Positions 1,890 through 47,115 of a stretch of DNA of 64,000 nt are shown here, one piece after another. How positions within the stretch are numbered: position 1 is the stretch's first letter; the number at the start of each line of letters is the position of its first letter. The stretch is taken from contig CASEOG010000002.1 in NCBI GenBank assembly GCA_949289575.1, forward strand, positions 160,254-224,253, given 5' to 3'. Both the position numbers and the translations under genes were made by a program. This stretch comes from an uncultured Spirochaetales bacterium. GTDB taxonomy: Bacteria; Spirochaetota; Spirochaetia; JAFGXN01. A model generated the notes under the pieces. The model did no database searches, was not told where the DNA came from, and saw nothing but the letters and a program-made list of their open reading frames with translations.

Positions 1890-1898
1890 AAGGAGTGT

Positions 1899-2432
1899 GT
1901 GATGATTACCAATGATTCAGTTTTGAAAGCTCTGAAAAAAACACCTAACTTTCGTTCGTTTCCGGATGAAGGACTTCTGAAGCTGATTGAAATCGGTCAG
2001 ATTCTCGAATTCAACAAAAGAGATTATATTTACAAGGAAACCCGAAAAGAAGAGGGAGAGAGCGAACATTCGGAAAGTTTTTTTATCATTGTCAAAGGGT
2101 GTGTCGATGTTTCGATTGTCGAAGATAATCACGAAGTTTATCTGTGTACGCTGGGGGAAGGCGAAACACTCGGCGAAACCGGTATCTTTCCGGGAATGGG
2201 GCGTGTCGACAATGTCATGCCCGTCGAAGATACCAGGATTCTGGAAATCAAAAAAGAAAACTTCATGAAATTCATGAAAGAATATCAGAGTGCTTCCAAT
2301 CAGATACTGTTAATTATGATCAGCTGTCTTATAAAAAAACTGCAACGTTCCAACCGGGATCTGGCTTTCGAACGCCGCGGAGATTTCTCACAGAGTATGA
2401 TTGACGAACTGATTCATGAGATTTCCGAATAG
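1899..2432 (+). CDS. Stand-alone cyclic-nucleotide-binding (Crp-type) domain protein with no HTH
   Basis: FFIIVKGCVDV...LGEGETLGETGIF....RVDNV cNMP pattern; AGGAG SD upstream. Confidence 0.85.
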   Translation: MMITNDSVLKALKKTPNFRSFPDEGLLKLIEIGQILEFNKRDYIYKETRKEEGESEHSESFFIIVKGCVDVSIVEDNHEVYLCTLGEGETLGETGIFPGMGRVDNVMPVEDTRILEIKKENFMKFMKEYQSASNQILLIMISCLIKKLQRSNRDLAFERRGDFSQSMIDELIHEISE

Positions 2433-2918
2433 AAGCCTGTCGGCTTTTGCAATCGGCTGCGATTGTATCACGGTCCTCAGACACTCGGAAAGACTGTTGC
2501 CGTAAACGGTATCGGAATCGCTGATTTCCGATAAAGGAGCCAGAACAAAAGCCCGCTCGAATAATCGCGGATGAGGAATCAGCAGGGTATCGGTTTCTAC
2601 GGTTTCCCGGGAGGAGAGAAAAAGCAAATCGATATCGATAATTCGCGGACCGTTCGGGATTGTCTTAATCCGCCCGAAGTCGGCTTCGATCTGCTTTGTG
2701 TAGCGGTGGAACTGTTCGACAGGAAGGTCGGTCTCGACAAAGCAGCACAGATTGAGAAAATCGTTCTGATCGGCATAGCCGACCGGGGCTGTAATGTAAG
2801 CACTGCTGATCAAACCGGGGCGGACATGGGGCAGTTGAGACAGGGAAAGAAGCGCCCGGTGCATATTGGCGACAGTGTTGCCGATATTGGTTCCGAGACT
2901 GAGTGCGATTTTATTCAT
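2388..2918 (-). CDS. folK: 2-amino-4-hydroxy-6-hydroxymethyldihydropteridine diphosphokinase
   Basis: IALSLGTNIG, QNDFLN, GPRIIDIDLL and IPHPRLFERAFVLAPL motifs. Confidence 0.96.
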   Translation of the reverse strand: MNKIALSLGTNIGNTVANMHRALLSLSQLPHVRPGLISSAYITAPVGYADQNDFLNLCCFVETDLPVEQFHRYTKQIEADFGRIKTIPNGPRIIDIDLLFLSSRETVETDTLLIPHPRLFERAFVLAPLSEISDSDTVYGNSLSECLRTVIQSQPIAKADRLLFGNLMNQFVNHTL

Positions 2919-3747
2919 AAGGATACCGCCTGTTCGGATAGAGTGCGGCCGCCGTTAATGCGGCTTCTTTGTTAATACGGACATCATGGACCCGGAACAG
3001 GTCGACTCCGGCGGCGACCCCGGCAGCTGTCGTGACTGCCGTGGCGACAGCCCGCTCTTTCGGCGTTCCCTGAAAGAGGGTAGCGAACATCCGTTTTCGG
3101 GAGGTTCCCAACAGAAGAGGATATCCGAACGAATGCAGTTCTTTCAGACGGCGAAGAACCTCGAAGGATTGCGCCGGTTCCATGCCGAACCCGATACCCG
3201 GATCCAAAATAATATTTTCTTCCTTAACACCGGCTTTCAAGGCTGTTTCTATCGATACAGACAAAAACCGTTTGATATCGTCCATAATATCGTCACCGAC
3301 CGGGTAGCCGAAATGATTACTCATCAGGCAGACGGGGCAGCCGGCCGAGGCGGCAACGGAAGCCATTTCGGGATCTTTTTGGAATCCCCATACATCATTA
3401 ATCATATCGGCACCCCACTCGAGAGCGGCAGCCGCTGTCCGCGCCTTAAAGGTGTCTACGGAAACAGGTATCGTTGAGGTTTTTATCGATTCGGCAACTG
3501 TCGACAGCCGGCGAATTTCCTCTTCCGCGGAAACGGGAGAACTGCCGGGGCGGGTCGATTCCGCTCCGATATCGATAATGTCGGCGCCTTCGGCTTTCAT
3601 TTTCTGCCATTGGGCCGAAGCCTTTTCTTCGGACAGAAAATCACCGCCGTCGCTGAACGAGTCCGGAGTCACATTGAGAATTCCCATTATCAGAGGAGTT
3701 TGTCCCAAAGAAAGTGTATATCGGCCGAAAGAAAGTGTCTTTGTCAT
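2911..3747 (-). CDS. folP: Dihydropteroate synthase
   Basis: IMGILNVTPDSFSDGG, DIGAESTRPG, DPGIGFG, GTSRKR and FRVHDV motifs. Start reassigned to MTKTL (3747), which overlaps the folE stop. Confidence 0.96.
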   Translation of the reverse strand: MTKTLSFGRYTLSLGQTPLIMGILNVTPDSFSDGGDFLSEEKASAQWQKMKAEGADIIDIGAESTRPGSSPVSAEEEIRRLSTVAESIKTSTIPVSVDTFKARTAAAALEWGADMINDVWGFQKDPEMASVAASAGCPVCLMSNHFGYPVGDDIMDDIKRFLSVSIETALKAGVKEENIILDPGIGFGMEPAQSFEVLRRLKELHSFGYPLLLGTSRKRMFATLFQGTPKERAVATAVTTAAGVAAGVDLFRVHDVRINKEAALTAAALYPNRRYPYE

Positions 3748-4307
3748 TCTGATTTTGAGGTCAGCATCAGCGCTTCGGTGCGCAGAGCCGTGTCTGTGCG
3801 GTAGATGCCGCGCGCGGCAACCGTTACTGTTTTTGATCCCTGCTTGCGGATACCGCGCATGGACATGCATAAGTGTTCGGCACTCACTGTTACGAGGACG
3901 CCGAGCGGGTTCAGTTTCTCCGTCAGGGCATCGGCAATCTGGGCCGTCAGATTTTCCTGAATTTGCGGACGCCGGGCGGCCGATTCCACAACACGGGCGA
4001 TTTTACTGAGACCCGTAATTTTCCGGTTTCGCGGCAGATAAATGACCGAGACCGTGCCGAAAAACGGCAGGAGATGATGCTCGCACATCGAATGAAAAGG
4101 AATTCCGCAAACCGCAACCGGGTCGTCGGAGTCGGCTTCGAAAAAGATATTTAATGCGTCGGCCGGATTTTTTCCGATACCGGAGAAAATCTCTTCGTAC
4201 ATGGATGCTATCCGACGGGGCGTCTCTTTCAACCCTTCCCGTTCGCTGTTTTCGCCTGTCGCTTCGATAATCATCCTGACAGCCGCTTCGATTTTGTCTC
4301 TGTCCAT
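3744..4307 (-). CDS. folE: GTP cyclohydrolase I
   Basis: REGLKETPRR, SMCEHHLLPF, GLSKIAR, RPQIQE and HLCMSMRG motifs. Confidence 0.97.
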   Translation of the reverse strand: MDRDKIEAAVRMIIEATGENSEREGLKETPRRIASMYEEIFSGIGKNPADALNIFFEADSDDPVAVCGIPFHSMCEHHLLPFFGTVSVIYLPRNRKITGLSKIARVVESAARRPQIQENLTAQIADALTEKLNPLGVLVTVSAEHLCMSMRGIRKQGSKTVTVAARGIYRTDTALRTEALMLTSKSE

Positions 4308-4341
4308 GCCTTACCTTATCAGAAAAGAGGAAAAGTTGCAA
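4308..4341 (-). promoter_or_regulatory. Putative sigma70 promoter of the fol operon
   Basis: TTGCAA (4336-4341), 17 bp spacer, TGa-TAAGGT (4313-4318); only 5 nt to the ATG. Confidence 0.5.
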
Positions 4342-4351
4342 ACGAAACGCT

Positions 4352-4379
4352 TTGCATTTTTATAAATTAACGGTATAGT
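4352..4379 (+). promoter_or_regulatory. Putative sigma70 promoter of the U32 gene
   Basis: TTGCAT, 16 bp spacer, TATAGT; GAGG SD before 4393. Confidence 0.5.
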
Positions 4380-4392
4380 GAATATGAGGTAG

Positions 4393-6594
4393 ATGATGAC
4401 AGAACTGTTGGCGCCTGCCGGCAACTGGGAATGTGCCGTTACGGCATTTGAAGCCGGAGCGGATGCCGTTTATGCCGGGTTGGCCCGCTTTAATGCACGC
4501 GAACGCAACCGCAATTTTACTTATGAAGAAATGAGCCGTTTGAGCCGTTACGCAAAAGATCACGGAAAGAAATTTTACGTGACAATGAATACACTGATAA
4601 AAGATTCCGAAATCGGTGATTTTACCGATGAGCTCGAGGCTCTGTCCCGTCTGGACCCCGATGCGCTGATTCTTCAGGACTTGGGGGCGCTGAAGATTTG
4701 CCGTGATTTTTTTCCCGAATTTCGTATTCACGCATCGACTCAGATGGGGATTCACAACAGTGCCGGATTGCGGACAGCCGCAAAACTCGGTGTTTCCCGC
4801 GTTATTTTGGAGCGGCAGCTGCTGTTTGATGAAATCGCCGCTATGGCAAAAGACCGCCCGACGGAATTGGAAGTGTTTATTCACGGAGCCTTGTGCTGCA
4901 GTCTCTCGGGAATGTGCCATTTTTCTTCGATCCAGGGCGGTTTCAGCGGCAACAGAGGGAAATGCAAACAACCGTGCCGACGTCTTTATCGGAACGGGGA
5001 GGGACAGACAGCGCCTTTCTTTTCACCCGACGATCTTCGGGCGGTTTCGCTGATTCATTCCTTTAAAGAAATCGGAATCGAGTCGTATAAAATAGAAGGA
5101 AGACTCAAGCGCGCCGATTATGTGAGGCAGACAGTGACGGCTTACCGTCTGCTTCTTGACGGAGATGCGTCCGATCTCCGTTTGCAGCGCGAAGCGTCCC
5201 GTATTCTGCAGGGAGGGGCGGTTCGTTCGTCGGGGACCGGATTTTATTCGGATGACAGCCGGGCCGCTTTGCTCGGACGCCGCTCGGTGCAGGCCGGAGA
5301 AGCGGCGGCGGAAACGGTATCGGTCTCCGGAAGCCGATGGACGGCAAAGTCTCTGACCGAAATTCATCGCGGCGATAAACTTCGGCTGCCCGAAAATGCC
5401 GGGGCCGGAATTGTGACTTTGACTGATATTGAGAGCGACGGACGGAAGGTGGCGGCGGTTCGTGCGAACAGGCTCTTCTCGTTCACGGTCCGTTCCGGAT
5501 GTTCGGGAGACACCGGTCGGAAAAGAGTCTTTGCCGGAACAGTCTTGTATCGGGTCGGGAGTCAGAGCGGAAAATCGGCGGAAGCGCTTGAACGGATGAA
5601 GCGGTATGACGAAAGGCGGCCGCTGCCTTTGACGGTCCGTCTGGACGGAGAAGGGCTGACGGTTTCGGTGACCGGAAAACCGGAAACCGGCTGCCGGTTC
5701 CCCTACGAGGCCGAAGCGGCTCAAAACGCCCCGGTAACGGTCGATGATCTGGTTCGCCTTTTTTCGCACAGCGGCGGCCGCGACTGGAAAGCGGGGGCGG
5801 TAACCGGCGATGTGACGGCGGCATATTTTGTTCCTGTCTCGGTGCGCAAGCAGTGGCGGCGGCAGTTGGAGCAGATGTGGGAAGAGGCTCCCGTACGCAG
5901 TCGGCCGCGGCGGGAGGCGGTTCTTGCGGCCGCAGCCCGGTTTGCGGCGGCACGATTCGCGGATGAAACCGTTACCGCGTTCGGCAGCCGCAGGACTCCC
6001 GACGGGAGCCCTGCGCTTCGGTGCGACCCGATCGGCCGTATCGGAAAAGAAACGGATGAAGTGGTGCTGCCTTTTTTTCTTCCCGAACCGCAGACCGGCA
6101 GTTTTCAGACGGTGATCGATAAAGCCGCAGCCTGCGGTGTCCGGCGTTTTCGGCTGACGTCACTCTGGCAGCTGGCGTTCCGGTACCCGCACAATGCGGT
6201 ATTGACAGCGGCACACCCTCTGCCGGCAGCCAACGCGTTTGCCGCCCGTCTGCTGGCGGAATCCGGTTGCGGACGAATCCAAATCTGGCCCGAATTGGGA
6301 GAAGAAGAGGCTGCACTCGCTTACGAATCTTTCGGGTGCGTCTGCGAACGGTTTGTTTTCGGTTCATTTCCCGTACTGGCGACACGGGCGGCGCTTCCGG
6401 AAGGGGACTATATCGCTGCCGAAACGGAATCCTCTCTGCGTTACTGGCAGGCGACGGCAGATGCCGTTTCCGGTTGTGTCCTTCTGTATCCGAAAGCGGC
6501 CGTATCGGCAAAAAGAGTCGCCGGCTGCGGATCCTTCTATGCGGAAAATGAATTTTCCGAAAAATTTCTTGTTTCTTTCCCTTCCATGAGTTAA
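4393..6594 (+). CDS. Peptidase U32 family Fe-S protein, long RlhA-like form (probable RNA hydroxylase)
   Basis: ELLAPAGN, GADAVY, EVFIHGALCCSLSGMC...NRGKCKQPCR and KIEGRLK motifs; 733 aa. Confidence 0.85.
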   Translation: MMTELLAPAGNWECAVTAFEAGADAVYAGLARFNARERNRNFTYEEMSRLSRYAKDHGKKFYVTMNTLIKDSEIGDFTDELEALSRLDPDALILQDLGALKICRDFFPEFRIHASTQMGIHNSAGLRTAAKLGVSRVILERQLLFDEIAAMAKDRPTELEVFIHGALCCSLSGMCHFSSIQGGFSGNRGKCKQPCRRLYRNGEGQTAPFFSPDDLRAVSLIHSFKEIGIESYKIEGRLKRADYVRQTVTAYRLLLDGDASDLRLQREASRILQGGAVRSSGTGFYSDDSRAALLGRRSVQAGEAAAETVSVSGSRWTAKSLTEIHRGDKLRLPENAGAGIVTLTDIESDGRKVAAVRANRLFSFTVRSGCSGDTGRKRVFAGTVLYRVGSQSGKSAEALERMKRYDERRPLPLTVRLDGEGLTVSVTGKPETGCRFPYEAEAAQNAPVTVDDLVRLFSHSGGRDWKAGAVTGDVTAAYFVPVSVRKQWRRQLEQMWEEAPVRSRPRREAVLAAAARFAAARFADETVTAFGSRRTPDGSPALRCDPIGRIGKETDEVVLPFFLPEPQTGSFQTVIDKAAACGVRRFRLTSLWQLAFRYPHNAVLTAAHPLPAANAFAARLLAESGCGRIQIWPELGEEEAALAYESFGCVCERFVFGSFPVLATRAALPEGDYIAAETESSLRYWQATADAVSGCVLLYPKAAVSAKRVAGCGSFYAENEFSEKFLVSFPSMS

Positions 6595-35625: not shown

Positions 35626-38082
35626 TTATCGTTCCGAAAAAAGAATTTCCGGATTGCCGTTGAGCCGGACCGATTCGCCCCGCTGCAGTTCGATATCGAT
35701 TGTTTTGCCGGCGTAGCGAACCGTTAACGGTTTTCCGGCATCGGAACGGATAACGGCTTCCGTCAGTTGCCCCTGTTCCCACGATGCGGATACGGTAAAC
35801 CCGCCGGCCGCTTTAAAACCGGAAAAGCGGCCGTTTGCGATAGCCGAAGGCAGCGCCGGCAGCAGATGAATCTCTCCGTTACCGCTTTGCAGCAGCCATT
35901 CGATAAAGGCGGAGACAAGTCCGAAGTTACCGTCAATCTGAAACGGAGGGTGGGCATCCCACAAATTTTTATAAAAGCCGCCGCCGGAAAGGGCAATTTC
36001 CGACCGCGAAGTCGGCTTGACAAAATTCCTCAGCAGCCGGTACGAGTGGTCGCCGTTCCCCAGACGGGCATGGAAATTCATTTTCCAGGCCATCGACCAC
36101 CCGGTGCCCTTATCGCCTCGGGCTTTTAGCGTAACGGCAGCCGCTTTTGCCAACTCGGGTGTCGTAATCGGAGAAATTTGAGTTCCCGGATGTAGGGCGT
36201 ACAAATGAGAAATATGGCGGTGTTTGTTTGTCTTCGAATCGATGTCTTTGGCCCACTCCTGGAGCTGTCCCCACCGTCCGATTTTCGGTTGCGGAATCCG
36301 TTCCAAACAGGATCGCCAATCCTCCCGCTCCCGCTCGTCGGTTTCGAGAATTTCGGAAGCGGAAACGACGGTTTTCAGGATTTCGTGTGCGATTTGGAAA
36401 TCCATTGACGCGCCGGCCGACACGGTGCCGTGCTCGGGAGAATAAGAAGGAGAGGAGATCAGATGACCGGTTTCGTCTTCAATCAGCCAATCGACCCAAA
36501 ATTGCGCGGCGCCTTTGATCGTCGGATAGATCTCTTTCAGAAAAGCGGTATCCTGCGTATACAGGTAGTGATCCCATAAATGGCGGCAGAGCCAGGCTGC
36601 CGCTCCGGGAAAATGGCCCCAGACAATTCCCCAGCCGGGCTGCGTTTCCCCAAAAGGGTTGTTGCTTGTATGGCAGACCCATCCGTCGGTGCCGTAATAG
36701 TGACGGGCGGTGATTTCTCCCGGTTGAACCAGTGTCGGAATGTAGTCGAGCAGCGGTTTGTGGACCTCTCCCAGATCGAGAGGCTCGGCGGGCCAGTAGG
36801 CCATTTGAAGGTTGATATTGGTATGGTAGTCGCTGCTCCACGGCGGATCGGTGTAGGCATTCCACAATCCCTGTAAGTTGAGCGGCAGAGAGCCTTCACG
36901 GGAAGAGGAAATCAGCAGATATTTTCCGTAATTAAAAAGCAGTTCCAAAAACAGCGGGTCTCTGCTGACGGCAAAACGGCGCAAGCGTTTATCGGTCGGA
37001 ATATCCGTTTTCGAATCGGATCGGGTCGAAAAACGGAGAGTTGTTCTGTCAAAGAGATTCGTATAGTCGCGCAGGTGATTCTCGAGTATTCGGTCGATCC
37101 CTTTTCGGCAGGCTTCACGGGCCAATTTGTCGGCCGTTTTGAGAGGTGACCGACGGCTTTTGTACAAAGGGTATTCGTTGATGTAGTCTGTTGCCGCGGA
37201 GAAAAAGAGAACGGCACTGTCGGCGCCCCGAACAGTCACCGATTCGCCGTCGGCAGCGATCGTACCGTTGACGGCTTTTATGTAAATGACGGCGGCGTAT
37301 TTCATGCCGTTGTTGTTCAGGATTCCTTCGACTGTCATTCGTGCCGTCCGGCTGTCGATACAGACTGTCGATACCGTTTCCCTGCGTCCTCTCCCGACGT
37401 TCGGATTTAAGCAGGGGAATTCGTTGCGATATCGGTCGTAATAGTTGTTCGTATCCGTTACCGGTTCCCACTGCAATCCGAATGTGATTTTCCGTTCGGT
37501 GTCTGCCGTCAGTGCGAAGAGCATTGCTTTATCGGGGTAAGAGGCAAATGCCGTTCGGGTATAATGTGTCCCGTCCGAGCTGAAAGTAACGGAATGAAGA
37601 GCGACGGATGTATCCAATTTTCGTATATAATTTCGGGGGTTTTCTCCGAGTTCGGGGAAATGAAGATCGAGGGTTCCGAGAGGCTGATATGCTCCTTTTC
37701 CTGTTCCGTTACCCGTCAGATACTTTTGCGAAAGACGATGAGCTTCTTCGTAGCGGCCTTCGGCGACGGCTTTTCTGATTTCCGGTAAGGCAAAGGCGCC
37801 TTTACCGGGATCGGGTTTGCCGTACCCGGTCCATTCTCCCGGCCCTCCTTCCCAGAGTGTCTTTTCGTTCAGAAGAATCCGTTCATGGGAAACTCCTCCG
37901 AAAAGAGAAGCGCCCATCCATCCGTTTCCGATCGGAAGAGCTTCCTGTTCCCAATTTTGTGCCGGTTTTTTGTAGAAAAGGACTTTATCGGCCGATTCGG
38001 CTGCAGAGGCATGGGGAGAAAAGAAAAGCGTTCCTGTGAGAATCGTCCCTATGAGAATGACCGGAGAGAGCGAAGAGTTCAT
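35626..38082 (-). CDS. GH95 alpha-1,2-L-fucosidase
   Basis: Signal peptide; WEQEALPIGNG, YGKYLLISSSR, NLQGLWN, SDYHTNINLQMAYW, SPEHG, HRHISHLY, GWSMAWK and HPPFQIDGNFG motifs. Confidence 0.93.
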   Translation of the reverse strand: MNSSLSPVILIGTILTGTLFFSPHASAAESADKVLFYKKPAQNWEQEALPIGNGWMGASLFGGVSHERILLNEKTLWEGGPGEWTGYGKPDPGKGAFALPEIRKAVAEGRYEEAHRLSQKYLTGNGTGKGAYQPLGTLDLHFPELGENPRNYIRKLDTSVALHSVTFSSDGTHYTRTAFASYPDKAMLFALTADTERKITFGLQWEPVTDTNNYYDRYRNEFPCLNPNVGRGRRETVSTVCIDSRTARMTVEGILNNNGMKYAAVIYIKAVNGTIAADGESVTVRGADSAVLFFSAATDYINEYPLYKSRRSPLKTADKLAREACRKGIDRILENHLRDYTNLFDRTTLRFSTRSDSKTDIPTDKRLRRFAVSRDPLFLELLFNYGKYLLISSSREGSLPLNLQGLWNAYTDPPWSSDYHTNINLQMAYWPAEPLDLGEVHKPLLDYIPTLVQPGEITARHYYGTDGWVCHTSNNPFGETQPGWGIVWGHFPGAAAWLCRHLWDHYLYTQDTAFLKEIYPTIKGAAQFWVDWLIEDETGHLISSPSYSPEHGTVSAGASMDFQIAHEILKTVVSASEILETDEREREDWRSCLERIPQPKIGRWGQLQEWAKDIDSKTNKHRHISHLYALHPGTQISPITTPELAKAAAVTLKARGDKGTGWSMAWKMNFHARLGNGDHSYRLLRNFVKPTSRSEIALSGGGFYKNLWDAHPPFQIDGNFGLVSAFIEWLLQSGNGEIHLLPALPSAIANGRFSGFKAAGGFTVSASWEQGQLTEAVIRSDAGKPLTVRYAGKTIDIELQRGESVRLNGNPEILFSER

Positions 38083-39941
38083 CGGGTTTCGATTTCTTCA
38101 ATCCAAAATGCCGTCATCCAGGTCTGTTTCGGTGAATTTTTGACCGCTTTGATTTCGATAACGTTGACTCCTTTTTTCAGCTGTATACGGACCGGTTGCC
38201 GGCGCCAGTAGAGTTCTTCGGCTGTCCACGGGACCTCCTGTACCGGGTGATCCCATGTTTGGACAATGTCGTGGCGGTAGGCGCCCGGCTGCTGCCACTG
38301 CGGCGGTGCGACGGGTTCTCCGTTTAACGTAATCGTACTGCCGTAGCGGTCCCATTTGCCCTTCGGAGGAACTCCGCCGTAAAAACGGTGCGCACGCAGC
38401 GGGACGTCGAAACCGGCATGCAGCAGAACGTCCCGGTCCGTATCGCTGACGATTTCCGTCCGGCAGAAAGCGGCCTGCCGTTTTTTTGCGTTCGGGAAGT
38501 AGCTGTCCAGGAGCAGCGAGACACCCCGTCCCTCCACCGTTTCACCGGACGGTCCCGTCAGTTGCCAAACCGTGTCGCACTGTTTTTCGTAAATGAATTC
38601 GGCGCCGACATCCCCGAAATAAAGATCTTTATGCGCAATCAGTCTGTTTTCGTATTCGGAAAAGGCTCGGAAGGCGGCCGTGCCTTTCGGGGGAATCATT
38701 TGTCTGTATTTTCGGCTTCCCGTCGGATTGCCGTTCCAAAAGATTTCGGCCGCCGTGATTCCCGCTGCGTATACCGGATTATTCAGTAAAACCTCGCGCT
38801 GGTCGGCAACAGCCACATCGTTCCAGTTACAGAGAATCGCACCCATGTCCGATTCCGATCCTTCGGGAACACCGCACGGCTGTTTGAAGTAGACAGCCTG
38901 AACGGCATTAAAATAATCAAAAGTATTTGTATAGAGACCGCTCGAATCGATATTCCGGTAACCGGGCTGTTTGGCGTTCTCAAACCATGTGTGCTCGATC
39001 ATATCGTTCGATGAGGGGATTCCGGGGTTCCAAACCATTCCGGTTCGGCCGTTTTCCTTCAGTTTTGCCTCGACCAGAGGCATGAATTCTTTGATAACGG
39101 GAGCCCGAACTTCGTCGGCACCGATATGAATAATCGGAGCCGTTTCGACCGGGATTTCATCGCAGAATTCCTGAATCAGATCGAGACAGATTTGGGTTCC
39201 TTTTTGCGAACCCATCGAAAAACCGAATGCTTTCGGAAAGAATTTGCTGTGTCCCGGCATATCCAGTTCCACAATCACCCGGACGCCCAGATCGTTGCTG
39301 AAAGAAATCAGATCACGGATTTCGTCGTAAGTATAAAATTCGGTACTGCGGTACATCGTTTTCGGATCGTTGAGAACCGGATATTTTTTACATTCGACCC
39401 GCCAGCCCGGATTGTCGGTGATGTGCCAGTGGAATGTGTTGAGTTTGTAAGCGGCCAGACGGCGGATTTGTTCTTTCAGATAGGGAATCGTCTGAAAATT
39501 TCTTCCGGTATCATGGTGAAAGCCGCGGACAGAAAAGGCGGGAAAATCTTCTATTATGCAGGCCGGCACCGGTTTTCGTCCGTTTTCGCTCAGTTGATTC
39601 AGTGTCAAACCCGCATAGCGGAGGCCCCGTTCGTCATTGGCCCTGATTTCGACGATACCGTTTTCGATTTTCAGAGAATAAGCTTCCGGTGAGCGGCTGA
39701 AAGCAAGCGGTTCCCTCTTTTTGATGATTTGACACTGTTCGAGTGGCCATTCGCCTTCTTTCCAGACAACATGACGCGGAAACGGAATCAGTGCACGGGG
39801 TGCCGCTTCGGCGGCCGGTAAATCAATCGGCGGAACATATTCTTTTGTTTCCGTATCCGATACCGTCGGCGGAATATCGACAGAAAGGCACCCGATAAAA
39901 AATAATCCCGTAAACAGTAATTTGCAAATTGTTTGACTCAT
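38079..39941 (-). CDS. GH20 beta-N-acetylhexosaminidase lipoprotein
   Basis: Lipobox LFFIGC; RGFHHDTGRNF, FHWHITDNPGWR, ELDMPGH and the catalytic HIGADEV. ATGA overlap with the GH95 start. Confidence 0.92.
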   Translation of the reverse strand: MSQTICKLLFTGLFFIGCLSVDIPPTVSDTETKEYVPPIDLPAAEAAPRALIPFPRHVVWKEGEWPLEQCQIIKKREPLAFSRSPEAYSLKIENGIVEIRANDERGLRYAGLTLNQLSENGRKPVPACIIEDFPAFSVRGFHHDTGRNFQTIPYLKEQIRRLAAYKLNTFHWHITDNPGWRVECKKYPVLNDPKTMYRSTEFYTYDEIRDLISFSNDLGVRVIVELDMPGHSKFFPKAFGFSMGSQKGTQICLDLIQEFCDEIPVETAPIIHIGADEVRAPVIKEFMPLVEAKLKENGRTGMVWNPGIPSSNDMIEHTWFENAKQPGYRNIDSSGLYTNTFDYFNAVQAVYFKQPCGVPEGSESDMGAILCNWNDVAVADQREVLLNNPVYAAGITAAEIFWNGNPTGSRKYRQMIPPKGTAAFRAFSEYENRLIAHKDLYFGDVGAEFIYEKQCDTVWQLTGPSGETVEGRGVSLLLDSYFPNAKKRQAAFCRTEIVSDTDRDVLLHAGFDVPLRAHRFYGGVPPKGKWDRYGSTITLNGEPVAPPQWQQPGAYRHDIVQTWDHPVQEVPWTAEELYWRRQPVRIQLKKGVNVIEIKAVKNSPKQTWMTAFWIEEIETR

Positions 39942-39976
39942 ACATCCCATTATACGGAAATTTTTCGTAAATACAA
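39942..39976 (-). promoter_or_regulatory. Promoter of GH20-GH95, probably leaderless
   Basis: TTGTAT (39971-39976), 16 bp spacer, TATAAT (39949-39954), 7 nt, ATG at 39941. Confidence 0.65.
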
Positions 39977-40976: not shown

Positions 40977-41001
40977 AAAAAAGGAGCGCCGAGGGCGCTC
41001 C
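40977..41001 (-). terminator. Intrinsic terminator ending the SCP2/aminotransferase/transketolase/VOC operon
   Basis: GGAGCGCC-ctc-GGCGCTCC followed by T6 on the minus strand. Confidence 0.85.
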
Positions 41002-41007
41002 CGAGTT

Positions 41008-41523
41008 TTACTTGTAATAGTCTTTGAATTTTCCTTTCCGCATGAAGAAGCCGATCAATCTGCTCATGTATTTAATCGGAAAATAGTTGGCGTGCAAATC
41101 CATCAGTTCGATCAGGTTCCCGTCCGGATCGCGAAAGAAAAACCAGTCGGCTCCGTCGTCTCTTTGAGGTTCGTTTAAAATTTCGACATCGGATCGCTCG
41201 CTCAATTTCTTATACCATTTCCCGATATTTTTGACATCGAGCGTAAAATGATGTGTTCCCGGACGGTTCCAGCAGTGTTCGAACGGAGCGGTTTCCGAAA
41301 ATTCGAAAATTTCGATTAACCCGCCTCTCGGCCCGAGCAAAAATCCGAATCGGACGGACATTCCGTCGGGGAGGTTGTACAGTTTTTTCATGCGGCTCAT
41401 TCGTTCCGCATCCAGACCGCCTTTCGAAATCAGAGAAAATCCGAAAACATCGCGATACCATCGGACGGCTTTGTTGAAATCTTTGACGGTTATGCCGACA
41501 TGGTTGAATCCTCTGGCTTTCAT
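41008..41523 (-). CDS. VOC (glyoxalase/methylmalonyl-CoA epimerase) family metalloenzyme
   Basis: FNHVGITV, LIEIFE, GTHHFTL and FRDPDGNLIEL motifs; probable metal ligands H8, E71, H92 and E139. Confidence 0.92.
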   Translation of the reverse strand: MKARGFNHVGITVKDFNKAVRWYRDVFGFSLISKGGLDAERMSRMKKLYNLPDGMSVRFGFLLGPRGGLIEIFEFSETAPFEHCWNRPGTHHFTLDVKNIGKWYKKLSERSDVEILNEPQRDDGADWFFFRDPDGNLIELMDLHANYFPIKYMSRLIGFFMRKGKFKDYYK

Positions 41524-41532
41524 TGAGTCCTC

Positions 41533-42339
41533 CTATTTTACCAGGCTTCCCACAAGCAGCATGTAGTCGCCCAGCTGGGCACCGAATTCGGGTCCGCCGA
41601 CCATAACCAGTCTTTGCTGAATGGTCGCCTCGATCATGTCGTCCGTTTCCTGCAGAATTCCCAATGCGCTTTTCGGCGAGTCGAATTTCATTGTAAAGAA
41701 GGGCATGCTTTTTGTGTATTGACCTCTTCGGGCTTTTGTCCGGCCTTTTTTGACACGGAGATAAGCCGACAGCTCCGGTTCTCCTTCGACAGCCCATGCG
41801 TAAATCCGGTCGGGACTGAGAGCCGCCCACGCTGCCACATCGGGATGTCCCAGTTTGTTCAGAATACTGATTCCGCGTGACAGAAGATAAAACATACACT
41901 TGACCAGCAGCTTTTGGTCATCCTCTTTTTTGGGAGCTGTTTTGGCGCCGAGAAGTCCCGACATTGTCAAGAGCAGCTTCATAAAATTCAGAAAAACGGA
42001 GAAATGTTTCAAAGCGCCTTTCATCTTCGGAAGCGGAAATAATTTTCCTTTGAAGAAGCCGCACAGATGCTCGGGTGATTTAAATTCCAGTTCGACATCG
42101 GGAGTCTCTTCGGAAACCCCTTTTTTCGGTGTACAGGTGCCGTTTTCGAAAATATAGTGAATCGCCATCTTTCCGTCGGGAGTTTTGCAGCTGATTTGGG
42201 CGACCGCTTTTTTCGCCTGCCAGCCCTTCTGCAATGCCGGACGGTCTTCCAGAATGGTTTTCAGAAGAGGGCAAACGGCATAGAGGAAGAGATGGGTCGA
42301 AAAAAGCGTTTCCTGTTCTTTTGTAATCGCAGTTGCCAT
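41533..42339 (-). CDS. Hypothetical protein with tandem SCP2-like (lipid-binding) domains
   Basis: F..G...........PDVELEFKSPEH...F.GK..P.P pattern and a second similar half; visible paralogy with 45525-46280. Confidence 0.55.
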   Translation of the reverse strand: MATAITKEQETLFSTHLFLYAVCPLLKTILEDRPALQKGWQAKKAVAQISCKTPDGKMAIHYIFENGTCTPKKGVSEETPDVELEFKSPEHLCGFFKGKLFPLPKMKGALKHFSVFLNFMKLLLTMSGLLGAKTAPKKEDDQKLLVKCMFYLLSRGISILNKLGHPDVAAWAALSPDRIYAWAVEGEPELSAYLRVKKGRTKARRGQYTKSMPFFTMKFDSPKSALGILQETDDMIEATIQQRLVMVGGPEFGAQLGDYMLLVGSLVK

Positions 42340-42348
42340 TCCGTCCTC

Positions 42349-43356
42349 CTAGAAATCGTCGTCGTCCCAGTCGTTGTCTTCTTCGATCTGAACGCCCATG
42401 ATTTCGTGAGCTGTTTTGACAATACCGTTCGAGTCGTATCCGTATTCGGACATCAAATCCTCGTGGAGTCCGATAATGGAGTAGGTGTCGGGAACTCCCA
42501 ATTTTCTCATGACACAGGCTTTACCCAGTTCGGTGACGGTTTCGGCTACGGCGCTTCCCAATCCGCCGATAATGTTATGGTCTTCGACGGTAATGATGCG
42601 TTTTGTATCGATGACCGCTTTTTCAATGGCTTCCTTATCGATCGGTTTAATTGTATGCATGTTCAAAACACGGGCACGGATACCGTCGGCTTCCAGTTCT
42701 TTGGCGGCCGCAACGGCGCGGGCAACACAGGCGCCGCAGGCAATGATGGTCAGGTCGGTTCCCTCTGCCATCTGTACCGCTTTCCCCAATTGAAATCCGT
42801 AATCGGTACTTTTGTAGATCGGCATATCGTAACCGCGGTTGATACGGATGTAAAAAGGACCGTCGTTTTCGTAGGCGGCAATAACCGCATTGGCCGTTTC
42901 CATTCCGTCGGCCGGAACAATCACGCGGCAGTTGGCCATCGTTCTCATGATGCCGATATCTTCCGTACAGTGGTGCGTGCTGCCTGCCTGACCGAACGAG
43001 AGACCGGCGTGGGTCGCAATGACCTTTACATTCATATTCTGATAGCAGATGTCGGTGTGAAACTGATCCAGGGCTCTCATCGAGGCGAAAATCGCAAAAG
43101 TGGAAGCAAACGGAATCAGACCCGCTTCGGCCATTCCCGCTGCAACTCCCATCATATTCTGTTCGGCAATACCGAGGTTGAAAATCCGGTCGGGGAAGTC
43201 TTTTGCCAAAGCTCCGATTTTGGTCGATTTGGCAAGGTCGGCAGACAGACCGACAACTCTTTTATCCTGTGCCGCCAAATCGCAAAGCACTTTTCCGTAA
43301 TATTCCGCGGTCGACATTTTCTCCGCGTCAAGCATTGTATAGTTTAAGTTAGCCAT
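42349..43356 (-). CDS. Transketolase family C-terminal subunit (pyrimidine-binding plus C domain)
   Basis: SADLAKST, GIAEQNM, THAG...G..GSTH..ED, PFYIRINR, HTIKPID and VEDHNIIGGLGSAVAE motifs. Confidence 0.95.
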   Translation of the reverse strand: MANLNYTMLDAEKMSTAEYYGKVLCDLAAQDKRVVGLSADLAKSTKIGALAKDFPDRIFNLGIAEQNMMGVAAGMAEAGLIPFASTFAIFASMRALDQFHTDICYQNMNVKVIATHAGLSFGQAGSTHHCTEDIGIMRTMANCRVIVPADGMETANAVIAAYENDGPFYIRINRGYDMPIYKSTDYGFQLGKAVQMAEGTDLTIIACGACVARAVAAAKELEADGIRARVLNMHTIKPIDKEAIEKAVIDTKRIITVEDHNIIGGLGSAVAETVTELGKACVMRKLGVPDTYSIIGLHEDLMSEYGYDSNGIVKTAHEIMGVQIEEDNDWDDDDF

Positions 43357-43366
43357 CCGTTTCCTC

Positions 43367-44218
43367 CTAGTTTTTCAATCGGCTGTCGTGATATTCGTCA
43401 ATCTGCTTTTTGTACCGTTCGCCGGTTTCGGCATTGACGCTGGCGTAGTGATACTGGTAGTTGTCCTGAATATCGGCAACTCCGCAGCCTTTAAATGTAT
43501 CGGCGATAATGGCTACCGGTTTGTCTTTTGCGGCAAGAGCGTATTCGATCGCATCGGCAAGCGCATACATATCGTGTCCGTCGACGACTTTGACATCAAA
43601 TCCGAAGGCGGTCCATTTATCCGCAAACGGTTCCAGGTTCATGACATCTTCGGTGCGTCCGTCAATCATACATTTGTTGCGGTCGATGATTGTAATGACG
43701 TTTGTGGCTTTGTAATGGGCAATTGCCATGGCAGCTTCCCATACCGATCCTTCGTCGCATTCTCCGTCTCCGAGCAGACAGTAGGTTTTAAAGTTTTTCT
43801 CCTGCAGACGTCCGCCGAGAGCCATGCCGAGGGCAATCGAAAGCCCGTGTCCGAGCGAACCTGTGGAGGCATCCAATCCGACCACTTTGTTTCTGTCCAG
43901 ATGCATACCCAATTTGCTGAAAGTGTGGTTGTAGGTTTTCAGCATTTCTTTATCGAAGAATCCTTTGTCGGCCAGAACCGGGGCAAAGCCGACGCCGATA
44001 TGTCCCTTGCTGAGGATGAACCGGTCTCTCTCTTCCCATCGGGGATTGGCGACATCGATATTCATGTATTTGTAATACAGAATTGTCAGAATATCGGTTG
44101 CGCTCAGGGCGCCGCCGATATGGCCTCCGTTTGCCCACATAACCGTGTCGATTGTCAGTTTTCGTAATTCCCTTGCTTTGTTTTCGAGAGCAAGGTATTC
44201 TTCTTTAGTCAGTCCCAT
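43367..44218 (-). CDS. Transketolase family N-terminal (ThDP-binding) subunit
   Basis: GGHIGG, RDRFILSKGH, TGSLGHGLS and the ThDP motif GDGE-x-EGSVWEA...DRN. Confidence 0.95.
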   Translation of the reverse strand: MGLTKEEYLALENKARELRKLTIDTVMWANGGHIGGALSATDILTILYYKYMNIDVANPRWEERDRFILSKGHIGVGFAPVLADKGFFDKEMLKTYNHTFSKLGMHLDRNKVVGLDASTGSLGHGLSIALGMALGGRLQEKNFKTYCLLGDGECDEGSVWEAAMAIAHYKATNVITIIDRNKCMIDGRTEDVMNLEPFADKWTAFGFDVKVVDGHDMYALADAIEYALAAKDKPVAIIADTFKGCGVADIQDNYQYHYASVNAETGERYKKQIDEYHDSRLKN

Positions 44219-44251
44219 TTTTTTCTCCTTGAAAAAGAATATATAAATTTA

Positions 44252-45514
44252 TCAGTTAACTTTGTCGGGATGCAGTTTGGCGACAGCCGCAAACGCTTCG
44301 TCCGCCACTTCGATCGTTTTTTTGATGTCGGCATCCGTCAGAGAGGCGTTCATGAAGTGGTTGTGGTGGCTGACCAGAAAAACTCCGCGTTTGACACACT
44401 CTGCACAGAAATCCTGCATCATTTCCGTTGTCGGGTCGTTGGTAATCCGCATGAAAGGCATCGATTCCACACCCGAGAACTTCATATCGATTCCGTGAGC
44501 ATGGCCGGCGTCGATCATGCCGGAAGCGAATTTTTTTCCTTTCTCGATCAGCAGGTTGGCAACATCGATTCTTTTCATTTCGTTGATACAGGCAATGGCG
44601 GCGGCCATCGGAACGGCACTCGACCAGTAACTGCCTGTAAAAAAGACGGAGCCGGCAGCCGATTTCAGGCTGTCGATACCGACGACGGCCGAAATATTGT
44701 AGCCGTTTGCCAATGCTTTGCAGTAGCAGGCCAGATCGGGTTTGAATCCGAAATATTTGGCGCTTCCTTCGATGTGCAGCCGGAATCCGCAACGGACATC
44801 GTCCACAATTAATACGATTCCGTTTCGGGTACAAATTTCGCGGATTTTCTGCCAGTATCCCGGAACGGGGAGTGCGTTATCCGCAAAAATCCGGTGATCG
44901 TACGGTGTGGCAATAAAACAGGCAATCGAATCTTTGTTTTCGGCAACCGTTTTTTCGAAAGCTTCGGCGTCGTTCCAGGGAATTACGATTACATCCTGTA
45001 AATCGGCTTTTGTAATACCGTTGGCACCTTCGGCCTGTGTCCAGGGGACCACTCCGTGGTAACCGCCCTGAACCCGGACAATTTTGCTCCGGCCGGTTGC
45101 GGCTTTGGCTGTCAGAACAGCAAACGAGGTGGCATCGCCTCCGTTTTTCAGAAAGAAAGCCCAATCGGCTATTTCGATTGTGTCGCACAGCAACTCGGCC
45201 AAATCGACCTGAACCCGTGCCGGCAGGGCCATACAGTTTCCTTTTTTCAGCTGCTCATTGGCCGCTTTATCGACAATTTCATTGTTGTATCCCAAAATAT
45301 TCGGTCCGTAAGCGCACATGTAGTCGATATATTTGTTTCCGTCGATGCTCCAGAAGTAGGAGTCTTTCACACGATCGACATAAAAAGGGAAGTCGCTTGC
45401 GGGAATAAACTGTGACTGAACAGGCCCCAGATGGCCGGGAATTCCTGTCGGGATATATTTGACTGCTTTTTTAAACAGTTCCAGTGATTTTGTGTTGGAA
45501 TAAAACTCTTTCAT
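44252..45514 (-). CDS. Class III PLP aminotransferase, FumI/GSA-aminomutase-like
   Basis: YIDYMCAYGPNILGY, ADWAFFLKNGGDATS, YHG..PW, ATPYDH, VDDVRCGFR, CKALANGY (PLP lysine) and FTGSYWSSAVPMAAA motifs. Confidence 0.9.
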   Translation of the reverse strand: MKEFYSNTKSLELFKKAVKYIPTGIPGHLGPVQSQFIPASDFPFYVDRVKDSYFWSIDGNKYIDYMCAYGPNILGYNNEIVDKAANEQLKKGNCMALPARVQVDLAELLCDTIEIADWAFFLKNGGDATSFAVLTAKAATGRSKIVRVQGGYHGVVPWTQAEGANGITKADLQDVIVIPWNDAEAFEKTVAENKDSIACFIATPYDHRIFADNALPVPGYWQKIREICTRNGIVLIVDDVRCGFRLHIEGSAKYFGFKPDLACYCKALANGYNISAVVGIDSLKSAAGSVFFTGSYWSSAVPMAAAIACINEMKRIDVANLLIEKGKKFASGMIDAGHAHGIDMKFSGVESMPFMRITNDPTTEMMQDFCAECVKRGVFLVSHHNHFMNASLTDADIKKTIEVADEAFAAVAKLHPDKVN

Positions 45515-45524
45515 GCCGTTCTCC

Positions 45525-46280
45525 TTATGCTAAATATCCGCCGACCAGTTCCAGAATCGGATTCATATACTCGACCATCGGAATGAATCCCTTCATCAGC
45601 AGATCTCCCGTTGCCAGAGCAACGTAAGTATCTGTTTTTCTGGAAAGAATGCCCTGTGCCGCTCCGAGGTCCTTAAAAACAAGTCGTGCATTCGATTTTT
45701 CGGCAAAACCTTTGTATGCCGTCAGATGTCCGTTTTTGACATCGATATACAGACCGATTTCCGTGCCGATTGAAGCCTGTATGATGCCGTTCGGAATGTG
45801 TTTCGCGTTTTGAATTCCTTTCGGGTCGTGGTTTCCGATTTGAGCCAGTGACGAAAAGGCGGTGTAGAATGTCATTTCGGTATTCATGGCAAAATAACCG
45901 GGGTCCGACAAAAGACTCTCTGTCGGTTTCAGGTAATACGACAACCGGTCCGCCAGTTTTGTAAACGGTCCCGTCAGAAAACCGATACGGGTCAGTCCTT
46001 TGAGCGGAATGGGATTGGCTTTCCCGTCAATCATTTTATTGAAATGTTCGGGAGAAGTAAAAAATAAGAGAATGTGTGACGGATGCGAACCCTCTTTCAT
46101 TTCCGCCTGTCCGTTTTTAAAAGACAGGTTTCCGTTCGGTCCGTTTTTGACCTTGAACTGGATGGAGAGATTCTTCCCCGCAACGATTTTTCTGCACTCT
46201 TCGTCGCGATTAACCAGGAACTCGATGTTACGCAAGACGCCGAAAAGATTGCAGTATGCCAGTACTTTCTGGTTTTTCAT
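45525..46280 (-). CDS. Hypothetical protein with tandem SCP2-like (lipid-binding) domains
   Basis: QFKVKNG...LSFKNG......G......LFFTSPEHFNKMIDGKANPIPLKG, and a second half ending VALATGDLLMKG; GAGGAG SD. Confidence 0.6.
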   Translation of the reverse strand: MKNQKVLAYCNLFGVLRNIEFLVNRDEECRKIVAGKNLSIQFKVKNGPNGNLSFKNGQAEMKEGSHPSHILLFFTSPEHFNKMIDGKANPIPLKGLTRIGFLTGPFTKLADRLSYYLKPTESLLSDPGYFAMNTEMTFYTAFSSLAQIGNHDPKGIQNAKHIPNGIIQASIGTEIGLYIDVKNGHLTAYKGFAEKSNARLVFKDLGAAQGILSRKTDTYVALATGDLLMKGFIPMVEYMNPILELVGGYLA

Positions 46281-46334
46281 AGCCGACTCCTCTGTTATCT
46301 GATAAGAAATAAATTAAGGTTGCCCTTTTCCGAC

Positions 46335-46364
46335 ATTATACAACGAAAATGCCGAAAAGTACAA
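46335..46364 (-). promoter_or_regulatory. sigma70 promoter of the six-gene operon
   Basis: TTGTAC (46359-46364), 18 bp spacer, TATAAT (46335-46340). Confidence 0.7.
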
Positions 46365-46374
46365 TTTTTTTCTT

Positions 46375-47079
46375 TTAATTTGAGACAGTCGGATAATTAA
46401 TGAAATAGAGAAACAGCAGCTGGAAAAAATTAAAGAGCGCATGGCTGACTGCCAGCAGATGAATGTTCTTTAACGCGTAATACCAGAGTCCCAGAACCAA
46501 TCCGATGACAAAAATCGATACGGTTGCCGTCACTCCCTGATAAAGATGACCCGAGGCGAACAAAAACGCGGAAACGAGCAGTGCGGGCGCCATCGGAACA
46601 CGGCAGCGGCTCAGGTAGGTCAGCAGATAAGAGCGGAAATAAAGTTCTTCGGTGTATCCGGTCAGAAGAAACATCAGGAAGGCCGGAATCAGCATCGCTC
46701 CGTTGGTCACGGAAAACGGAATCGTTTCCTGAGGAGAGGGAGCTCCCCAGCCGAACATTCGGGGCAGCAGAACGGAGGCTGTCTGAACGGCAAACAGAGA
46801 GGCGAGAATAACAAAGGGCATCAGCCGGTCAATCGGTGTTTCCGGTTTGCGGAAACCGAAATCGGCAAAGGTCGTCCCTTCCTGGCGGTGAATCAGCCAA
46901 AGAAGAAAAAGAAATTGAGGAAAAGCGACGGCAAAGTAGGTCAGATATAAGAACGGATTATCGAAGTCGATTCTGCCGGTTCCGACCTGCTGTTGCAGGA
47001 TGGTCGGAAAGTAGAGAACAAGATAAATCAGCAGCGGTTCCGCAATACGGAAAAAAATTTCTTTTTTTTCGGACATCAT
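46375..47079 (-). CDS. CPBP (Abi/CAAX-like) intramembrane metalloprotease
   Basis: TEELYFR, FASGHLYQG and SHALFN motifs. Start probably MMSEKK, 5-8 nt after TTGAAT-16 bp-TACACT. Confidence 0.9.
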   Translation of the reverse strand: MMSEKKEIFFRIAEPLLIYLVLYFPTILQQQVGTGRIDFDNPFLYLTYFAVAFPQFLFLLWLIHRQEGTTFADFGFRKPETPIDRLMPFVILASLFAVQTASVLLPRMFGWGAPSPQETIPFSVTNGAMLIPAFLMFLLTGYTEELYFRSYLLTYLSRCRVPMAPALLVSAFLFASGHLYQGVTATVSIFVIGLVLGLWYYALKNIHLLAVSHALFNFFQLLFLYFINYPTVSN

Positions 47080-47115
47080 AAGACAGTGTAACAGATTTTT
47101 CCCATTATTCAAAGT

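Follow-up and report, generated by a model that had tools for sequence, protein, structure and literature searches.

A conserved Spirochaetales operon pairing a FumI-like aminotransferase with an altered transketolase: a candidate module for sphingoid-base breakdown

Why should a bacterium keep a class III aminotransferase, a split transketolase and two SCP2-like proteins in one transcription unit, with no kinase, isomerase or transporter among its genes? The question is raised by a six-gene operon in a 64,000-nt stretch of DNA (the window) from an uncultured Spirochaetales bacterium (GenBank assembly GCA_949289575.1, contig CASEOG010000002.1, positions 160,254–224,253). All coordinates given here are positions in the window, and all six genes lie on its minus strand. 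The gene order is scpA, AT (class III aminotransferase), tkN, tkC, scpB and VOC, and Pfam and NCBIfam profile searches assigned all but scpB to families. An initial annotation, made from the sequence alone, had proposed that they encode a catabolic pathway for sphingoid bases. The reading we favour, which in our judgement stands evenly balanced between right and wrong, is that the operon is a soluble module for breakdown or detoxification of sphingoid-type long-chain bases by transamination followed by thiamine diphosphate (ThDP)-dependent cleavage, most plausibly acting on 2-amino-1,3-diols and perhaps on 2-amino-3-ols. We argue for it from the gene set and its conservation, the relationship of the aminotransferase to FumI, the SCP2 folds of the two carrier proteins, and the altered residues of the transketolase.

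Conservation and layout of the operon

Close relatives of AT were encoded by 384 species-level genomes, and synteny was counted in the best 80 related loci. Wherever the contig extended far enough, scpA was found upstream of AT (74 of 74 loci), and tkN, tkC and scpB followed downstream in the same order in 58 of 59. The single exception (L052) carried scpA–AT and then a CitMHS transporter gene, without a transketolase. These loci belong to Spirochaetes and to rumen, hindgut and human-gut Clostridia (Acutalibacteraceae, Oscillospiraceae). Among cultured bacteria, Vallitalea guaymasensis (CP058561.1) contains scpA–AT–tkN–tkC–scpB–VOC followed by a TetR gene, and Lutispora saccharofermentans encodes AT. 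Co-conservation of the genes, which the initial proposal presupposed, was thus evident for a five-gene core, scpA–AT–tkN–tkC–scpB, syntenic in Spirochaetes, gut Clostridia and Vallitalea.

The pairings within this core outlasted changes in its order. A metagenome-assembled genome (MAG) labelled Myxococcota contained the permuted order tkN–tkC–scpB–scpA–AT (L097), and two further loci (L101 and L102) contained tkN–tkC–scpB without scpA–AT; scpA adjoined AT in L097 and L052, and scpB stood directly after tkC in L097, L101 and L102. The module therefore resolves into two sub-modules, scpA–AT and tkN–tkC–scpB, each composed of an enzyme and its own carrier gene. The VOC gene followed scpB in eight Spirochaete loci (L001–L007 and L100) and in Vallitalea but was absent from the Clostridial loci, and is therefore a lineage-specific sixth gene outside the conserved core. 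A gene for a short-chain dehydrogenase/reductase (SDR) followed scpB in 14 Clostridial loci. Besides VOC and the SDR gene, the flanks of the 80 loci revealed no further conserved gene, only variable housekeeping genes. Of the 401 genomes of the phylum, 36 carried the module according to a profile search with scpB; they represented 19 of its 152 genera. Such a patchy distribution is what an accessory catabolic module would be expected to show.

In the window itself, the intergenic gaps within the operon measured 10, 33, 10, 9 and 9 nt in order, and the minus-strand unit with short gaps described in the initial annotation was recovered in full, including its lack of a sugar kinase, isomerase or transporter (Table 1). 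The promoter described there can be read in the sequence, directly 3′ of the stop codon of the upstream CPBP gene and about 55 nt 5′ of the scpA ATG, which is preceded by GGAG. Its −35 hexamer is poor; a consensus promoter scan did not report the site, because TTGTAC matches TTGACA at three of six positions. The terminator placed beyond the VOC gene was likewise found, as a G–C-rich hairpin with a T-run. By their layout the six genes form a real operon, in an arrangement far beyond chance.

Table 1 Features of the operon in the window
Feature	Position	Strand	Basis
Promoter-like site, TTGTAC-18 nt-TATAAT	46335–46364	minus	Read directly from the sequence
scpA, two SCP2-like halves, 251 aa	45525–46280	minus	Pfam SCP2, 26.3 bits; AlphaFold2; Foldseek
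AT, FumI-like class III (pyridoxal phosphate) aminotransferase, 420 aa	44252–45514	minus	PF00202; best PDB match 6hbs
tkN, split transketolase N-terminal (ThDP/PP) subunit, 283 aa	43367–44218	minus	PF00456, 1e-42; 6yak
tkC, split transketolase Pyr and C-terminal subunit, 335 aa	42349–43356	minus	PF02779 and PF02780; 6yaj
scpB, scpA paralogue, two SCP2-like halves, 268 aa	41533–42339	minus	hhalign; AlphaFold2; Foldseek
VOC (glyoxalase/dioxygenase-fold) protein, 171 aa	41008–41523	minus	PF00903, 5e-22
Intrinsic terminator-like hairpin, then TTTTTAT	40982–41002	minus	9-bp stem with 7 G–C pairs; 3′ of the VOC stop codon

The operon is flanked by genes for a CvfB-like S1 protein, secreted GH20 and GH95 enzymes, a CPBP protease, ComEC and RsmA. 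The gene for the CPBP/Rce1-like intramembrane protease (46375–47112, minus strand) ends about 10 nt before the operon promoter and occupies the same position in the three closest relatives (L001–L003; 74–81% identity), not further out. The genes for the apparently secreted GH95 enzyme (818 aa) and GH20 hexosaminidase (623 aa) lie a short way downstream of the CvfB-like gene (35626–39950, minus strand); enzymes of these types remove sugars from host glycans, and the head groups of glycosphingolipids could be among their substrates.

The FumI-like aminotransferase and the altered transketolase

AT matched PF00202 with an E-value of 2.4e-36 (residues 42–388). Its best match among all PDB chains was FumI, the aminopentol aminotransferase of Sphingopyxis sp. 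MTA144 (6hbs/6hbv; E = 4e-90, 306 bits, residues 7–413), compared with 162 bits for the best HemL in the PDB and at most 100 bits for sugar C-6′ aminotransferases. Identity to FumI was 38% across 407 aa, i.e. the full length, and the catalytic Lys of AT aligned with that of FumI. The motifs named as FumI-like in the initial annotation (YIDYMCAYGPN, ADWA.F.KNG.DATS, VDDVR.GFR, K..ANGY.ISA and TGS.W.SAVPMAAAI) aligned residue for residue, and the suggested grouping with FumI rather than HemL agreed with both scores and alignment. Judged by these comparisons, AT belongs to the FumI subfamily of class III aminotransferases. Two other identities were considered and rejected: AT stayed far under the NCBIfam equivalog cut-offs for HemL (233 and 228 bits against 398 and 527) and under that for GntE, and FumI was a much better match than either. 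The label "glutamate-1-semialdehyde aminomutase" on some relatives of AT is likewise unsupported by the HemL scores.

FumI deaminates C2 of hydrolysed fumonisin B1 (HFB1), a sphinganine analogue, with pyruvate as its preferred acceptor (PMC3136697). In the papers on the fum cluster, FumI is accompanied by esterase and tricarballylate-utilisation genes; no SCP2 or transketolase genes are described, nor is the fate of 2-keto-HFB1. Compared with that cluster, the operon adds a C–C-cleaving enzyme and two lipid carriers, and it is found in anaerobes.

The FumI relationship also bears on a reading in which the catabolic steps are the same but the substrate is another hydrophobic amine, such as a 1-deoxysphingoid or fumonisin-type 2-amino-3-ol, an aryl-serinol, or a polyketide or marine amino alcohol. 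The substrate of FumI is itself a 1-deoxy, (2S,3S) aminopentol (PMC3136697), and its 2-keto product has the canonical (3S) configuration, unlike the product of D-erythro bases. The hosts of the module, moreover, include bacteria of herbivore guts, where feed toxins occur, and of marine sediment. The wide spread of the module over gut and sediment anaerobes nevertheless argues for a common substrate, and among natural long-chain 2-amino-1,3-diols sphingoid bases far exceed all others in abundance. On this and on the transketolase evidence below, we regard a different amine as unlikely.

The transketolase partner is a split enzyme whose best PDB matches, at 251 bits for tkN (6yak) and 281 bits for tkC (6yaj), were the subunits of the Carboxydothermus hydrogenoformans transketolase; it shares with that enzyme the two-subunit architecture, the ThDP motif (GDGE...N) and the catalytic histidines. 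Alignments to 6yak, 6yaj and human transketolase indicated that the equivalents of E. coli His26, His66, His100, His261 and His473 are kept. In the E. coli enzyme, His26 and His261 hydrogen-bond sugar hydroxyl groups, including the C1-OH of the donor.

Comparison of 64 cluster orthologues with six paralogous split transketolases from the same genomes revealed fixed changes in the substrate channel of the cluster form. In tkC, Ala17 takes the place of the Arg358 equivalent (human Arg318, a phosphate ligand), GQAG takes the place of GEDG, with Ala124 at the Asp469 equivalent, and His129 takes the place of Gln (SHQ to THH); in tkN, WHG has become YHY, and the cluster-specific residues are N97, G104, L107, H124 and Y258. 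The tkC substitutions, His129 included, were present in 62–64 of the 64 orthologues and absent from the six paralogues. Whereas the C. hydrogenoformans enzyme and ordinary split transketolases read TR, GEDG, SHQ and WHG, the operon family reads TA, GQAG, THH and YHY. The sugar-phosphate recognition set is consequently incomplete: the equivalents of Arg358 and of Asp469 (2-OH of the acceptor) are lost, whereas those of the phosphate ligands Ser385, His461 and Arg520 are retained, so that a sugar phosphate may still serve as partner for the two-carbon unit.

Asp469 helps to bind the substrate and to select between stereoisomers, and it is a standard target when the substrate scope or stereochemistry of transketolase is engineered (PMC11387542); the E. 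coli variant S385Y/D469T/R520Q evolved during a shift from phosphorylated through non-polar aliphatic to aromatic aldehydes (PMC5073344). A channel blind to the 4-hydroxyl and distal phosphate but keeping the C1-OH histidines would fit a ketol of the form HOCH2-CO-CHOH-alkyl, because the Arg358 and Asp469 equivalents are lost while the histidines that contact the donor C1-OH are kept. Transamination of a sphinganine-type base yields just such a ketol. As regards the choice of amine, conservation of the His26 and His261 equivalents favours a 1-hydroxy ketol and so speaks against the alternative substrates, whereas the nearly equal scores of tkC against DXS models (201 bits) and transketolase models (262 bits) speak for them.

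The gene inventory of the source genome (1.95 Mb, 97.8% complete) raises a simpler explanation, that the operon enzyme is an ordinary pentose-phosphate transketolase, with AT, the SCP2-like proteins and the VOC protein unrelated to it or engaged in another process. It is the only transketolase of this genome, where DXS is the only other Transket_pyr protein; neither transaldolase nor phosphoketolase was found there, and ribulose-phosphate 3-epimerase (Rpe) is present. The retained Ser385, His461 and Arg520 equivalents are compatible with such a role, and tkN and tkC jointly reached 511 bits against NF004559, above its cut-off of 488. Of the 11 other cluster-bearing genomes checked, however, seven also carried at least one higher-scoring canonical transketolase beside the cluster form, and it is specifically the cluster form that has lost the Arg358 and Asp469 equivalents. 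A purely housekeeping enzyme would also leave unexplained a gene order conserved across phyla, a pairing that survives permutation, and the independent pairing of FumI-clade aminotransferases with Asp469-less transketolases in Alphaproteobacteria (see below). We consider this explanation very improbable.

Putative lipid carriers, accessory genes and the probable direction of the pathway

The match of scpA to Pfam SCP2 was weak (cut-off 21.3 bits) and confined to the first half of the protein, and scpB had no Pfam or NCBIfam match; the two proteins were nevertheless recognised as full-length paralogues (hhalign 98.5%, E = 3e-15). AlphaFold2 models built on 26–27 orthologues had a predicted local distance difference test score (pLDDT) of 93.0 and a predicted template modelling (TM) score of 0.88 for scpA, and a pLDDT of 93.4 for scpB. 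All significant Foldseek PDB matches of both models were SCP2 proteins or domains (probability 1.00 for the top matches), including human and yeast SCP2, UbiJ-SCP2, mosquito SCP2 with bound palmitate, and the C-terminal domain of the alkylsulfatase SdsA1. Each protein is a tandem of two SCP2-like halves, because the targets covered about half of each model and the secondary-structure pattern occurred twice per protein. The SCP2 fold suspected in the initial annotation thus reappears in the models of both proteins, and scpA and scpB are confidently predicted to be double SCP2 folds, which would serve as lipid carriers.

Proteins of this kind are few: 1.84 billion clustered proteins include 230 representatives of their family. 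The fold is shared by UbiJ-SCP2, which belongs to the ubiquinone biosynthesis metabolon, and by the SCP2 domain of SdsA1 (Foldseek TM 0.6–0.68 on the target). In both cases the carrier domain is believed to hand a hydrophobic substrate over to soluble enzymes, as we propose here. Unlike these systems, the operon proteins are tandem, form a small dedicated family, and are each genetically paired with one enzyme.

The VOC protein matched PF00903 over residues 5–140, with the putative metal ligands H8, E71, H92 and E139 present; it reached no NCBIfam equivalog cut-off, and its PDB matches were weak (FosB and dioxygenase-related proteins). It could be a C3 epimerase. Beyond the Pfam Glyoxalase domain it has a basic and aromatic tail of about 28 residues (HANYFPIKYMSRLIGFFMRKGKFKDYYK; codons at 41008–41094), which might be an amphipathic segment contacting membrane or lipid.

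Genes linked to the module in individual genomes bear on its direction. In the Spirochaete loci L005 and L006, the VOC gene was followed by a divergent TetR gene and a BaiCD/FadH-type flavin ene-reductase gene; L005 also contained an iron-containing alcohol dehydrogenase and a D-2-hydroxyacid dehydrogenase nearby. A Spirochaete MAG (L007) encoded an outer-membrane factor and an AcrB-type resistance-nodulation-division (RND) pump directly upstream of scpA on the same strand (1360–5832), an indication that the amphiphile in question is also exported; downstream it encoded an aldo-keto reductase. The best match of the Vallitalea TetR protein (L096), a weak one, was Bacillus-type FadR. In L101 (G037:C62, 3010–9562), tkN–tkC–scpB were divergent from two genes, one for an aldehyde:ferredoxin oxidoreductase and one for a class III aminotransferase other than AT (closest to 5ykr in the PDB, 406 bits), with an AMP-binding enzyme of the acyl/acetyl-CoA synthetase type upstream. 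L102 contained a flavin mononucleotide (FMN) reductase gene and an ORF with a weaker resemblance to TetR, which was confined to the C-terminal domain and fell just short of the Pfam cut-off. Exo_endo_phos genes near the L097 and L006 clusters were considered as a sphingomyelinase-like lead and dropped; they were mutually unrelated and had no PDB sequence match and no informative NCBIfam match.

A search with FumI as the query identified 515 relatives, mostly from aerobic Proteobacteria, and in five of the best 80 FumI-clade loci (L116, L130, L171, L177 and L182) a split transketolase was encoded beside the aminotransferase. All five belong to Alphaproteobacteria (Shinella, Pseudooceanicola, Albibacillus); they contain TetR and ATP-binding cassette (ABC) importer genes (SBP_bac_5 or SBP_bac_8) and are without SCP2 genes. 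Their transketolases have also lost Asp469 (GEDG to GFYG) and read SHH. These genes appear to make up another catabolic aminotransferase–transketolase cluster, hitherto uncharacterised, whose substrate is probably an imported amine. A FumI-type aminotransferase with an Asp469-less transketolase therefore recurs in two settings, one linked to importers in a catabolic layout and the other linked to SCP2 proteins, and we regard this recurrence as the strongest argument that the two enzymes act in sequence and in the degradative direction. The importers with binding proteins also suggest that the pair serves more than one amine, a point in favour of the alternative substrates discussed above. Taken together, the linked genes (TetR, RND pump, ene-reductase, aldehyde oxidoreductase, ABC importers) point towards a hydrophobic amino alcohol being degraded or detoxified to an aldehyde; the ene-reductase would suit the 2-enal expected from sphingosine, and the aldehyde oxidoreductases and reductases would suit a fatty aldehyde.

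The same chemistry could in principle run in reverse, with AT aminating C2, and would then supply a sphingoid-type base independently of serine palmitoyltransferase. Transketolases and transaminases both work reversibly, and the aminotransferase–transketolase pair has a biosynthetic counterpart in anisomycin synthesis, where AniP (transketolase), AniQ (aminotransferase) and AniN (SDR) include the same two enzyme types acting on the same ketol/amino-alcohol skeleton; the SDR gene after scpB in the 14 Clostridial loci accompanies the pair as AniN does. Most gut loci have no regulator and lie amid housekeeping genes, the module is kept in small genomes (1.5–2.9 Mb), and Rpe of the source genome could supply xylulose-5-phosphate. 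AniP, however, is a fused enzyme without the histidine-rich motif that the operon transketolase keeps; its reaction joins an arylpyruvate to an aldehyde, and no SCP2 proteins accompany it (PMC11387542). Engineered transketolase–transaminase cascades for amino-diols use the same enzyme pairing but are man-made. No acyl-ACP/CoA reductase, N-acyltransferase or head-group enzyme was conserved beside the core in the 80 loci, and both the patchy distribution within the phylum and the linked regulators, efflux, ene-reductase, aldehyde oxidoreductase and importers suit catabolism better. We therefore hold biosynthesis to be improbable. Its most explicit form seems to us decidedly so: a lipid-adapted transketolase would build a 1,3-dihydroxy-2-keto head on a fatty aldehyde with a two-carbon unit from xylulose-5-phosphate or hydroxypyruvate, the FumI-type transaminase would aminate it, and the SCP2 proteins would hold the lipid. 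If this route free of serine palmitoyltransferase were true, many gut Clostridia and Spirochaetes would make unrecognised amino-diol lipids.

The proposed pathway and its significance

In the breakdown pathway that we favour, the long-chain base would enter the membrane by itself, so that no transporter would be needed, and would be picked up by the double-SCP2 carrier scpA. The FumI-like aminotransferase would then move the C2 amino group onto a 2-oxo acid to give the 1,3-dihydroxy-2-ketone, and the transketolase, served by scpB, would cut the C2–C3 bond to release a fatty aldehyde and leave a two-carbon unit on ThDP. This unit would pass to an acceptor, probably glyceraldehyde-3-phosphate, to give xylulose-5-phosphate, and general reductases or oxidoreductases would handle the aldehyde. 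The operon transketolase may thus exchange its two-carbon unit with xylulose-5-phosphate, or double as the sole transketolase of the cell. In this scheme the identities of substrate and acceptor, the order and direction in which the steps run, and the part played by the VOC protein are inferences.

Several observations weigh against breakdown of sphingoid bases by this route. One is stereochemical: D-erythro (2S,3R) bases would yield a (3R)-ketol, because the priority order at C3 is the same in the sphinganine-derived ketone and in xylulose, whereas transketolase donors are (3S), and the ten split transketolases tested so far all give (S) products (PMC13663882). The pathway would therefore require acceptance of the other epimer by the remodelled site, the action of an epimerase, or a substrate of threo or 1-deoxy type resembling the (2S,3S) fumonisin backbone; the candidate epimerase, the VOC protein, is missing from the Clostridial clusters. 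The natural trio of transketolase, aminotransferase and SDR known from anisomycin runs biosynthetically (PMC11387542). Since the operon transketolase is the only one in this genome, alongside Rpe and without transaldolase or phosphoketolase, it may also serve sugar-phosphate metabolism. Finally, most gut Clostridial loci are without a regulator and have variable housekeeping flanks, which a constitutive function fits equally well. The sphingoid-base catabolism proposed in the initial annotation accordingly stands in part: the FumI grouping, co-conservation, SCP2 folds, lost Arg358 and Asp469 equivalents and accessory genes speak for it, and the position of VOC outside the core and the (3R)/(3S) mismatch speak against it.

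The proposed pathway would differ from the known means of removing such bases. In the eukaryotic route, sphingosine kinase phosphorylates the base at the expense of ATP, and the pyridoxal phosphate-dependent sphingosine 1-phosphate lyase cuts the C2–C3 bond to give a fatty aldehyde. In Pseudomonas aeruginosa, sphBCD encodes a periplasmic FMN oxidoreductase, a cytochrome c and a predicted pyridoxal phosphate-dependent aldolase, with an unknown product (PMC11398299). Both share with the operon the presumed substrate class and the removal of an antimicrobial long-chain base. Neither a kinase with a pyridoxal phosphate-dependent lyase nor a periplasmic oxidoreductase with a cytochrome c is encoded among the six genes or their flanks; instead of kinase, lyase or oxidase, the operon would use ThDP-dependent cleavage after transamination, independently of oxygen. 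Full-text literature searches found no description of the gene combination, of a transaminase/transketolase route for sphingoid bases, or of FumI acting on sphinganine, in line with the initial annotation's view of the route as undescribed. The parts are known kinds of enzymes; novelty lies in how they are combined, in the apparent adaptation of the transketolase to lipids and in the pairing of double-SCP2 carriers with enzymes.

The gut is rich in sphingoid bases, lipids with antimicrobial and signalling activity that come from host, diet and Bacteroidota, and how strict anaerobes remove or use them is not known. If our reading is true, cytoplasmic, oxygen-independent transamination followed by ThDP-dependent C2–C3 cleavage would be a new catabolic logic for these bases and a new natural role for transketolase, on lipid substrates, and the double-SCP2 proteins, a small family dedicated to this module, would gain a function. 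The enzymes could also be put to use directly as biocatalysts for long-chain amino-diols, and the cultured carriers Vallitalea guaymasensis and Lutispora saccharofermentans render the idea directly testable. Given how often it occurs in Clostridia of the rumen, hindgut and human gut, the cassette could influence the availability of sphingolipids to the host and the fate of sphinganine-like feed toxins.

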